Assembly (NCBI GenBank): GCA_000165345.1
Contig: CM000435.1
Location: 128,001-192,000 of the forward strand
Direction: 5' to 3'
Length of the DNA: 64,000 nt
Position 1 is the first letter of the stretch, and every line of letters begins with the position of its first letter. Position numbers and translations under genes: made by a program. The notes under the pieces were generated by a model that was not told the origin of the DNA, made no database searches, and was given only the letters and a program-made list of their open reading frames with translations. Of this stretch, positions 10,577 through 12,787 are shown piece after piece.

Positions 10577-12787
10577 TTACATGTAACTGCATGCACTTTC
10601 GTTAGTTTTTTTTTCCCTTAGAATAACCCCATCAGAAAGTTTTGAAAAGTGTAGAATTTCATCTTCTGGTTGTAGAAGCTCTTCTACAGCTTCATCGATT
10701 GGTTTCATTAAGAAAAGCCCTTTAAGTTGTTCAAAGAATCCCTTTCCCAAGAGCATTTCATAGTCTTGGGATTTAAGTAAATCTTGAAAACGCGGTCTTT
10801 TCTTCGGGTCCATTGTAAGCATTTTTCCAAGCAGTTCAATATATTCTGAAAACAATAATAATAAATTAAATTAATAAGCATTTGCAACTAGTGGTAAAAA
10901 GAGAATATAATAGATCAGTTTTTTCCTCTTGATCATACTTACTAACATAAAAACCACTGTTGATATTTTAAAAACTTACCAGCACTCCAAGCAGGATCAG
11001 CAGCTAACTTCAACAAGCTCTCCTTGACAAAGCTCCTTAATCTCTTATAATCTTTCTCTTTAGGTTCATAAATCAGTGATAATGAGAGGAAAACCATAGC
11101 TAAACAGAAAACATCATTCTTGTGTAGATCGACCTCTTTTTCAAAATCCTCATATGTTTTATAGTTTGGTTTAGTTAATGCATACCTCAATTCAGGGGAA
11201 ACATTTAAAGGGATATTTGCATTCTTTTTCATTATTTCTATGAACCAATGCTTAATTCTTAATGGAAGCATAAAGTCCCCAAGAAGTAGTATGAATCCCG
11301 TAGCATTTACGTATATATTAGATAGTTTAATATTACCATGGAATATCTCATAGCTTTCTAGAAAAGATAGAGCCTTAATAATCAATAAAAGATTATAATG
11401 AAGTAAATCACATGTATAATAGTAAATATGTCTTTGACCTGATAAATTTTTTATTAATGAGATTCCGTTTCCATACTCACAGTATGGAGTTATGAGAGCT
11501 AATGCATGTCTTATTTTGTACTTTGGATGAGAATACTTTGTACCAGTAGTAGCAATTAAAGGAGCTAAACCAGATTCTTGAAAATCTCCCCCACAGTAAA
11601 GTAGAATATACCTCCATTGTCCTCTCATAATCTTCTCAGCTTCTGTTGCATCACCTCTAAGTACTCTTGCATTTTCTAAGGCTTTTGTTGCATAAAATTT
11701 TCTTCCAGTTTCAGATATTCCAACTTCTCCGTAAATCTTCAATTAATAAATAATCAGTCATTTCATTTTATTAAGTAAAATAGCTTAAAATTTAACTTAC
11801 CATTTTTGCTGCAAATCTCATATCATCATTCGCAACTTGTGGAGGCTTATCAGAGCCTTCTGTATCATCATTTGACTTGGATCCCTTTTTTTTCTTTGTT
11901 TTATCATTTACTTGTGCTTTCTCCTCAGAAGTTCCAATTGCTTGTTCAATAGTTTTCTTTCTTTTTGGTGGCTTTAAACCTCTAGATTTGAAAAATTTGT
12001 CCCTAGAATCATCCCATTGCTTTTGAATCCAATTCTGAAGATCCTTATCTCTCTGAACTTGTACTTTGAGCAAATGTATCCAAGGTGCATCTAATCTATG
12101 AAGATCAGGAGGTAAAGACTTTTTGTCCCACCTAAAAAGTAAAGTTGCTGACCTTAAGTTCCTCATACTTTCCTGTACTGCTTTCTTCTTATTCTATTAG
12201 TTAGATAGAATATAAGTATATATAATATAAAGTAATGAATTTACTATGAACTTTCTTTAAACGTTACCTCTAAATGAATTTTAACATTTTGAGCGTTTTC
12301 AAGAAAAACATTCGGATCCTCTAAATTATTTGGATTCAAATCGTTTATATCTGCCTCTTTCAAGTCTTCCATTTGCTGTGATTCAATAATTTCTTGTAAA
12401 CTCTCTTCTATTTGTTGATCACAAATATTAATTTGAGAATCCAAATCTTCTCTAAAATTAGTTAAAAAGAAAAAAAAAACAAATAAATATTATTATAAGA
12501 AAAATCCGGTACCTTTATAATTGTTCAATATTTATAATTTCTATATAATATCAGTAATAGATCTTTATTATTATACCAAAGAACTACCGGATAAAAAAAA
12601 AATTCGAATTTTCAACTTACAGTTCTGCCTTTAAACTCTCCATTGAAGAATTTACATCATTTTTCAGGAGCCAAGATTCACTATAATAGGAATTTCCCCT
12701 AAGTCTTTCTACTGGGATCCATCCTATATCCCATACAATTTTTGTGCCATAGACCCCATAATAAATAGATTCATCTATAGAGTCCAT
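10577..12787 (-). CDS. Divergent protein-kinase-like protein, probable pseudokinase; 5 exons
   Basis: Exons are (±1 nt) 12787..12621, 12451..12268, 12193..11801, 11736..10981 and 10845..10577. All four introns use GTAAGT or GTAACG donors and AG acceptors. Reading phases are self-consistent: exon lengths 167, 184 and 393 nt give the required phases 2, 0 and 0. The last splice joins ...ESLLKLAADPAWSA to EYIELLGKMLTMDPKKRPRFQDLL, a textbook kinase subdomain XI. Subdomain IX (DVFCLAMVFLSLSL) and the catalytic-loop region (HGNIKLSNIYVNATGFILLLGDFMLP) are present. HRD is replaced by HGN and the VAIK region is atypical. The ORF track shows four separate fragments (66, 124, 266 and 92 aa). Confidence 0.45.

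Follow-up and report, generated by a model that had tools for sequence, protein, structure and literature searches.

The Cryptosporidium parvum gene cgd7_600 lies on the minus strand at positions 12787-10577 of the 64,000-nucleotide stretch of chromosome 7 analysed here (contig CM000435.1 of assembly GCA_000165345.1, positions 128,001 to 192,000 of the forward strand; hereafter the window, whose own numbering is used throughout). Spliced assembly of the proposed exons joined five coding segments into a single frame of 1770 nucleotides (nt) without an internal stop, encoding 589 amino acids (aa). We consider it likely, at a probability of about 0.8, that cgd7_600 is a single five-exon gene whose product belongs to an Apicomplexa-wide pseudokinase family and is probably a farnesylated scaffold. 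From its sequence and from structure prediction, the product consists of a W-motif beta-sheet, three long coiled-coil-like helices, a basic disordered linker, a kinase-fold domain and an acidic tail with a terminal CaaX box. The original prediction, made from the letters of the window and their open reading frames (ORFs), had described four ORF fragments as one five-exon gene for a divergent kinase-like protein of about 500 aa. Its length estimate was too short; its gene model matched the public models of C. parvum IOWA-ATCC (CPATCC_003210), C. hominis, C. tyzzeri and C. meleagridis, in which the same five coding segments are joined.

Exon 1 (12787-12621, 167 nt) starts with the ATG at 12787-12785, encodes a conserved N-terminal motif (IYYGVYGTKIVWDIGWIPVERLRGNSYYSESW) and ends in phase 2. 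Intron 1 (12620-12452, 169 nt, GTAAGT...TTTTAG) has a guanine–cytosine (GC) content of 18% and carries TTAAC 10 nt 5' of its acceptor. Exon 2 (12451-12268, 184 nt) encodes an acidic segment with a predicted long helix (coiled-coil-like) and is separated by intron 2 (12267-12194, 74 nt, GTAACG...CTAACTAATAG) from exon 3 (12193-11801, 393 nt), which encodes helices 2 and 3, the motif RLDAPW, the basic linker and a terminal AK(M). Intron 3 (11800-11737, 64 nt, GTAAGT...TTGAAG) splits the kinase-like domain just past an invariant Lys. Most of that domain is encoded by exon 4 (11736-10980, 757 nt, ending in phase 1), including the motifs HGNIKLSN (11340-11317), GDF (11280-11272) and SPE (11199-11191). 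After intron 4 (10979-10846, 134 nt, GTAAGT...TTTTCAG), exon 5 (10845-10577, 269 nt including the stop codon TAA at 10579-10577) encodes subdomain XI, with the R517 codon at 10798-10796, the acidic tail and the CaaX box CSYM (10591-10580).

All four introns have GT..AG borders, with phases of 2, 0, 0 and 1 and lengths of 64–169 nt, as the original prediction of canonical GT(AAGT/AACG)..AG introns with consistent phases had it. The donor is GTAAGT in three introns and GTAACG in one, the acceptors are TAG, TAG, AAG and CAG, and TTAAC or CTAAC is found near the acceptor in introns 1 and 2. The GC content was 17–23% in the introns versus 29–36% in the exons. No intron length is divisible by 3, and retention of any intron leads to an in-frame stop within at most 13 codons (at codon 57 for intron 1). 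The last junction reads DPAWSA/EYIELLGKMLTMDPKKRPRF, with the codon of Glu501 split as G/AA. These intron figures agree with published statistics for C. parvum (mean length 99 base pairs, GC content 22%; Isaza et al. 2015, PMC4637869). According to the same study, 10.8% of C. parvum genes bear introns and these have 2–10 exons each, with a mean of 2.6. Five exons, which had been called unusual for this type of genome, therefore put the gene towards the upper end without making it exceptional.

A second in-frame acceptor for intron 2 (cag, 12175-12173) is located 21 nt downstream of the one used here. The upstream acceptor adds seven residues, NKKKAVQ, which are kept in C. canis DNA as DRKKSVQ and have the counterparts DRKKAVQ in C. 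ubiquitum and DQKKEIQ in C. muris. Because these residues are conserved between species, the comparison favours the upstream acceptor as the real site. The C. canis annotation takes the equivalent of the downstream cag for intron 2 (contig L003, 3518-3605), dropping DRKKSVQ, and the C. ubiquitum model (P0015) is 12 residues (EYIELLGKMLTM) short where exons 4 and 5 meet. Both omissions look like annotation choices, not biology.

When the annotated C. canis and C. muris proteins were mapped onto their own DNA, five exons were obtained in each, with the codon positions and phases of the introns shared with C. parvum, a form of conservation that had been proposed as a check of the gene model. Exon 4 is 757 nt and exon 5 is 269 nt in all three species, and intron 1 keeps its position and phase with lengths of 166 nt in C. 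canis and 184 nt in C. muris. Intron positions and phases are shared despite GC contents of the locus of 22% in C. muris, approximately 33% in C. parvum and 46% in C. canis. Compared with C. canis DNA, the exons were 72–80% identical with few gaps, whereas the introns were 49–57% identical and varied in length. An intronless homologue (P0005) was encoded by a single uninterrupted ORF on contig L002 that includes both the N-terminal module and the kinase domain, and transcriptome-derived gregarine proteins also combine the two. Evidence that the fragments are fused thus does not depend on predicted splicing. Contig L002 is a 2.8-kb Logan contig from SRR26360272 with a GC content of 53%; the homologue (40-1569) has 509 aa, 29% identity and no CaaX box at its C-terminus, and its tightly spaced neighbours encode a Rad60-SLD and an EF1 guanine nucleotide exchange domain. 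The ratio of nonsynonymous to synonymous substitution rates (Ka/Ks) of cgd7_600 between C. parvum and C. hominis is 0.27 (PMC4637869, supplement), which indicates purifying selection and hence no decaying pseudogene.

The spliced product was equal in length to the C. parvum IOWA-ATCC protein QOY40372.1 (CPATCC_003210) and identical to it in 588 of 589 residues. The sole mismatch is at codon 191 (11972-11974), which encodes Lys in the window and Asn in QOY40372.1. Since residue 191 is Lys in all other Cryptosporidium species, the Asn of the ATCC protein is derived or erroneous. Identity to the 589-aa C. hominis protein was 98%, and the 589-aa models of C. hominis (OLQ17732.1/PPS95956.1), C. tyzzeri (TRY50657.1) and C. 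meleagridis (POM84170.1) differed at 10–28 residues. Public annotations of C. parvum IOWA-ATCC, C. hominis, C. tyzzeri, C. meleagridis, C. muris and C. canis already contain this gene model and label the product as a kinase. The re-annotation of Isaza et al. (2015, PMC4637869) was based on RNA sequencing and complementary DNA and explicitly extended genes by adding exons; the later IOWA-ATCC annotation was likewise based on such data, with exons added into larger genes.

The kinase domain was the only Pfam match of the 589-aa product. In the kinase-profile search that the original prediction had called for, residues 327–526 aligned with positions 73–260 of the 263 positions of the Pkinase profile (PF00069), with 33.8 bits versus a cut-off of 31.7 (E 3e-8), which places the product in the Pkinase superfamily with its bilobal protein kinase fold. 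Nine relatives scored 27–45 bits on this profile, three of them below the 31.7-bit cut-off. Among PDB sequences, GCN2, Wee1 and IRE1 were matched by profiles of the family, and NEK1 (2e-13), NEK7, KSR, STK16 and TTK by a broader family profile. In the PDB alignments, HGNIKLSN fell on HRDLKPxN, GDFM on GDFG, SPE on APE/SPE and DVFCLA on D(I/V)WSLG. DPKKRP fell on the Arg motif of subdomain XI, the subdomain that the last exon junction had, correctly, been proposed to recreate.

The HGN of the catalytic loop (residues 381–383) aligned with the HRD of GCN2 and NEK1, and the Asp that serves as the catalytic base is absent. The replacement of HRDLKPxN by HGNIKLSN, noticed in the original prediction, extends to the whole family: HG was followed by N, S or H, never by D, in each of the 35 distinct sequences spanning the loop, both orthologues and fragment models from Cryptosporidium, and the loop is strongly conserved as HGNIKPSN. 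As no family member has the catalytic Asp, loss of the base was ancestral to the family. The combination of a kinase fold with a family-wide loss of the HRD Asp makes these proteins pseudokinases, in the sense of kinase folds that have lost one or more of the catalytic Lys, HRD Asp and DFG Asp, and the earlier suggestion of a pseudokinase held for orthologues across Apicomplexa. Other kinase residues are kept. The catalytic-loop Asn388 is invariant, as is R517 of subdomain XI, and SPE and the subdomain IX Asp are retained. Cryptosporidium, coccidia and gregarines retain the DFG Asp (Asp402, in GDFM), whereas Plasmodium has Asn, with GNF replacing GDF in all its members.

The N-terminal part of the kinase-like domain was much harder to place. 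The region of the ATP-binding lysine had been described as atypical, and in the 10 family members scanned no hidden Markov model (HMM) or profile alignment covered beta1–beta3 and alphaC. Their Pfam alignments started at profile position 51 or later in 10 of 10 cases, and a profile–profile comparison with the nearest active kinases aligned from beta4 onward only. Upstream of K247 (11806-11804, the last-but-one codon of exon 3) no GxGxxG motif was present, the preceding sequence being SDKPPQVANDDMRF. K247 is invariant in the 13 family members aligned, and E280 is nearly invariant across the family. Only a forced-global hhalign alignment reached this region; it placed K247 and E280 on the VAIK Lys and the alphaC Glu of ciliate-type active kinases with low column confidence, with an insert of 17 residues between them that contains a conserved [D/T]-G-[R/K] turn. 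Their assignment as the beta3-Lys/alphaC-Glu pair is a hypothesis.

Outside the family, the sequences matched best were NEK1/NEK7 and ciliate-type kinases, and the nearest intact kinases were of the ciliate type (e.g. Stentor coeruleus OMJ67000.1). Ciliate or environmental kinases matched at approximately 1e-15 and have the motifs KxDV(F/Y)(C/S)LG and SP(E/x)L in common with the family. HRD is intact and the N-lobe recognisable in NEK1/NEK7 and the ciliate-type kinases, in contrast to the family. NEK1 and NEK7 are named here as the best hits among PDB sequences. SCYL and Vps15-like pseudokinases had been named as candidate relatives, and no specific similarity to either was seen; the nearest sequences with solved structures were NEK1, NEK7, KSR, STK16, TTK, Wee1 and GCN2. 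An analogy with MLKL, in which a helical N-terminal module is also combined with an HGx pseudokinase, found no support other than a superficial likeness.

Could the protein nevertheless be an atypical active kinase, with a relocated lysine or with weak catalysis by Asn at the base position? Relocated lysines are known from WNK kinases, and weak catalysis with Asn at this position has been reported for HER3 and JAK2 JH2. Such an activity would fit the strong conservation of the HGNIKPSN loop throughout the family, and the conservation of Asn388, K247 and E280, with Asp402 in Cryptosporidium, coccidia and gregarines, means that nucleotide and metal binding may persist. We nevertheless consider an active kinase unlikely. 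The base position is never acidic in the family and can also be Ser or His, the DFG Asp is lost as well in the Plasmodium orthologues, and there is no glycine-rich loop. Moreover, the equivalent substitution in GCN2, D835N, was deposited as an 'inactivating mutant' (PDB 1zxe), and its HRN aligned with the HGN of cgd7_600. By its PDB title, the structure of the pseudokinase domain JAK2 JH2, in which a kinase fold carries HGN instead of HRD, contains bound Mg-ATP, so the HGN substitution is compatible with nucleotide binding.

An exhaustive HMM search of representatives with the Cryptosporidium profile returned 16 representatives below 1e-30. Proteins of 511–599 aa were similar over their full length and collinear, with E-values of 1.7e-114 to 1.4e-63 in the profile search. 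The family includes Eimeria brunetti CDJ51848.1 (4e-102), Besnoitia besnoiti XP_029221215.1 (7e-92), gregarine transcriptome proteins (Ancora sagittata and others) and Plasmodium proteins annotated as 'protein kinase, putative'; the members from Neospora, E. flavescens, P. relictum and P. cynomolgi were drawn from a later, separate search. The family alignment is collinear from end to end, through W..G..P..R..G, the helices, RLDxPW, the basic linker, A-K and the kinase-like domain. Identity of the coccidian and Plasmodium orthologues to the cgd7_600 product is only 21–30%, and they share with it HG[N/S], SPE, the invariant AK and the subdomain XI Arg (P. yoelii XP_022813693.1 for Plasmodium). 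Low-complexity inserts interrupt the N-lobe of the Plasmodium orthologues, which have GNF for GDF and lack a CaaX box. The coccidian orthologues CDJ51848.1, XP_029221215.1 and Neospora caninum XP_003884667.1 are named 'protein kinase (incomplete catalytic triad)', so this feature is already on record for coccidia.

Two features of the protein had been missed by the original prediction, namely the module that precedes the kinase-like domain and the conserved CaaX box. Conservation of the N-terminus extends to all Cryptosporidium orthologues, and the pattern W-x2-G-x2-P-x2-R-x2-G is also conserved in the coccidian, gregarine and Plasmodium orthologues. The N-terminal 190 residues had no Pfam match; in the AlphaFold2 prediction they form a sheet of three strands and then three long helices. 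The C. hominis protein (P0001, 98% identical) served as the modelled sequence, with an alignment of 10 sequences, and the model had a mean predicted local distance difference test score (pLDDT) of 64.5 and a predicted template modelling score (pTM) of 0.62. The block pLDDT was mostly 75–94 in the C-lobe and 70–86 in the exon 2 segment, where a helix was predicted at residues 45–84. An alignment of five sequences yielded a pLDDT of 38.7 and no usable model. The basic low-complexity linker occupies residues 191–240.

At the C-terminus, CSYM has the form of a CaaX box, with Cys at position -4 and a final residue of the farnesyltransferase type, for which M, S, Q and A are suitable, and predicts farnesylation. 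Every full-length Cryptosporidium orthologue has this Cys; C[SN]YM was present in nine full-length Cryptosporidium proteins from seven named species and in one C-terminal fragment. Coccidian orthologues end in CAVM (Eimeria), CTLM (Besnoitia) and CAIM (Neospora), and several gregarine or other relatives in CSIM, CTVQ, CSIS and CCVC. The top protein of the Toxoplasma gondii prenylome, TGME49_236620, is a 'protein kinase' that ends in CVIQ and was enriched 26-fold by labelling with a prenyl analogue; its fitness score is +1.46, and its P. falciparum orthologue PF3D7_1331000 is without the motif (PMC10470541, Table S5). A kinase annotation, a CaaX box and its absence in Plasmodium form the same phyletic pattern as in the cgd7_600 family. 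TGME49_236620 is at most a possible orthologue, and its CVIQ is unlike the CAIM and CTLM of the Neospora and Besnoitia orthologues. TGME49_236620 was not found in the portion of the hyperLOPIT supplements that was available.

The protein is probably not a conventional phosphotransferase and would be non-catalytic or barely catalytic, acting as a probably farnesylated, membrane-tethered scaffold or allosteric partner. Outside Plasmodium, the Asn and Asp that serve as metal ligands and the candidate Lys–Glu pair are retained, so nucleotide may still be bound at the pseudo-active site. Oligomerisation or the binding of partners may be a role of the N-terminal sheet and coiled coil. A more specific proposal, on which we would put slightly less than even odds, is that of an anciently inactivated, farnesyl-anchored family that lost its anchor in Plasmodium, in which the N-terminal module is combined with a remodelled N-lobe that carries a conserved [D/T]-G-[R/K] hairpin, placed after the putative beta3 Lys and before alphaC, and no glycine-rich hairpin.

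Several points weigh against this interpretation as a whole. Some kinases with Asn or another residue at the position of the catalytic base keep low activity. The Pkinase score barely exceeds its threshold, and standard methods fail to align the initial 80 residues of the kinase-like domain with kinases, which leaves the Lys and Glu assignments weak. The middle residues of the Cryptosporidium CaaX box (S/N and Y) are non-aliphatic, and the box is absent from the Plasmodium orthologues. The AlphaFold2 model is of moderate quality, given its mean pLDDT of 64.5, its 10 sequences and its derivation from the C. hominis protein. Finally, the four junctions rest on sequence logic, comparative conservation and the annotations of other groups.

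Shorter models of the gene persist in public records. The C. parvum Iowa II protein XP_628249.1 (cgd7_600, 228 aa, 'Ser/Thr protein kinase') is an exact substring within the exon 4 region; it starts at the internal Met285, runs into intron 4 and has no N-lobe. Entries of 124 aa named 'hypothetical protein 7g605' are exact substrings from exons 1 and 2, with intron 1 spliced and intron 2 read through, and the rest of the protein is missing from them. These exact matches identify the locus as cgd7_600 on C. parvum chromosome 7. Fragment models still in GenBank (minus strand, 10942-11742 and 12244-12787 of the window) are XP_628249.1, WKS78738.1/WKS78740.1 and KAL5367366.1/KAL5367368.1; further ones are C. 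hominis XP_666870.1 and, from Cryptosporidium sp. chipmunk genotype I, KAH8582777.1/KAH8582779.1. The view embodied in the pairs of a 228-aa kinase and a 124-aa hypothetical protein in these older annotations, that the locus holds separate small genes or a decaying pseudogene with coincidental splice sites, is very improbable and is effectively refuted by the comparative data: all four junctions are GT..AG with compatible phases and positions shared with C. canis and C. muris, exons and introns clearly differ in conservation, the full-length collinear protein is conserved across Apicomplexa and includes an intronless homologue, Ka/Ks is 0.27, and the 228-aa model begins at an internal Met.

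The window is AT-rich (GC content 27–40%) and densely filled with long single ORFs; no transfer RNA genes were found within its 64 kb. On the minus strand downstream of cgd7_600, a 1055-aa ORF without a Pfam match (7278-10445) lies approximately 450 nt from a 390-aa ORF with TPR and Cns1/TTC4 'Wheel' matches (5658-6830). In C. canis (L003, 5363-8232), the gene downstream of the kinase was called as one product of 1429 aa with TPR and Wheel hits, and C. muris has a separate 1017-aa gene. The 1429-aa product reflects either a merged model in C. canis or a missed intron in C. parvum. The divergently oriented neighbour on the plus strand (13096-14982) is a 628-aa ORF without a Pfam match that ends in an imperfect repeat rich in Q, P, I and S (…PQLTQISQIPQISQMPQISHISQVPQITQVAQMSQIP…). 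Other single ORFs have ordinary domains, namely a CAF1B/HIR1-type WD40 propeller (3121-5169), a CRAL/TRIO protein (16638-17849), a DEAH-box helicase with HA2/OB domains (19407-22535) and a weak cyclin N-terminal match (22842-24836).

In the literature searched, we found neither functional work on cgd7_600, TGME49_236620 or PF3D7_1331000, nor mention of a functional study of the family, its CaaX box or its N-terminal module. cgd7_600 was not found in the text or the available parts of the supplements of the 2011 C. parvum kinome paper, and neither cgd7_600 nor TGME49_236620 was found in the available parts of the supplements of a paper on apicomplexan kinase evolution. The results overturn no current knowledge. 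The locus is a case in which fragment models of 228 and 124 aa have propagated in several Cryptosporidium records beside the correct 589-aa model. The family is conserved across Apicomplexa, is unstudied and has a predicted lipid anchor, which makes it of modest interest for parasite signalling and for drugs that target prenylation. If the proposal of an anciently inactivated, farnesyl-anchored family is true, the product of cgd7_600 would be a lipid-anchored, as yet uncharacterised pseudokinase scaffold and might correspond to the most enriched protein of the Toxoplasma prenylome.

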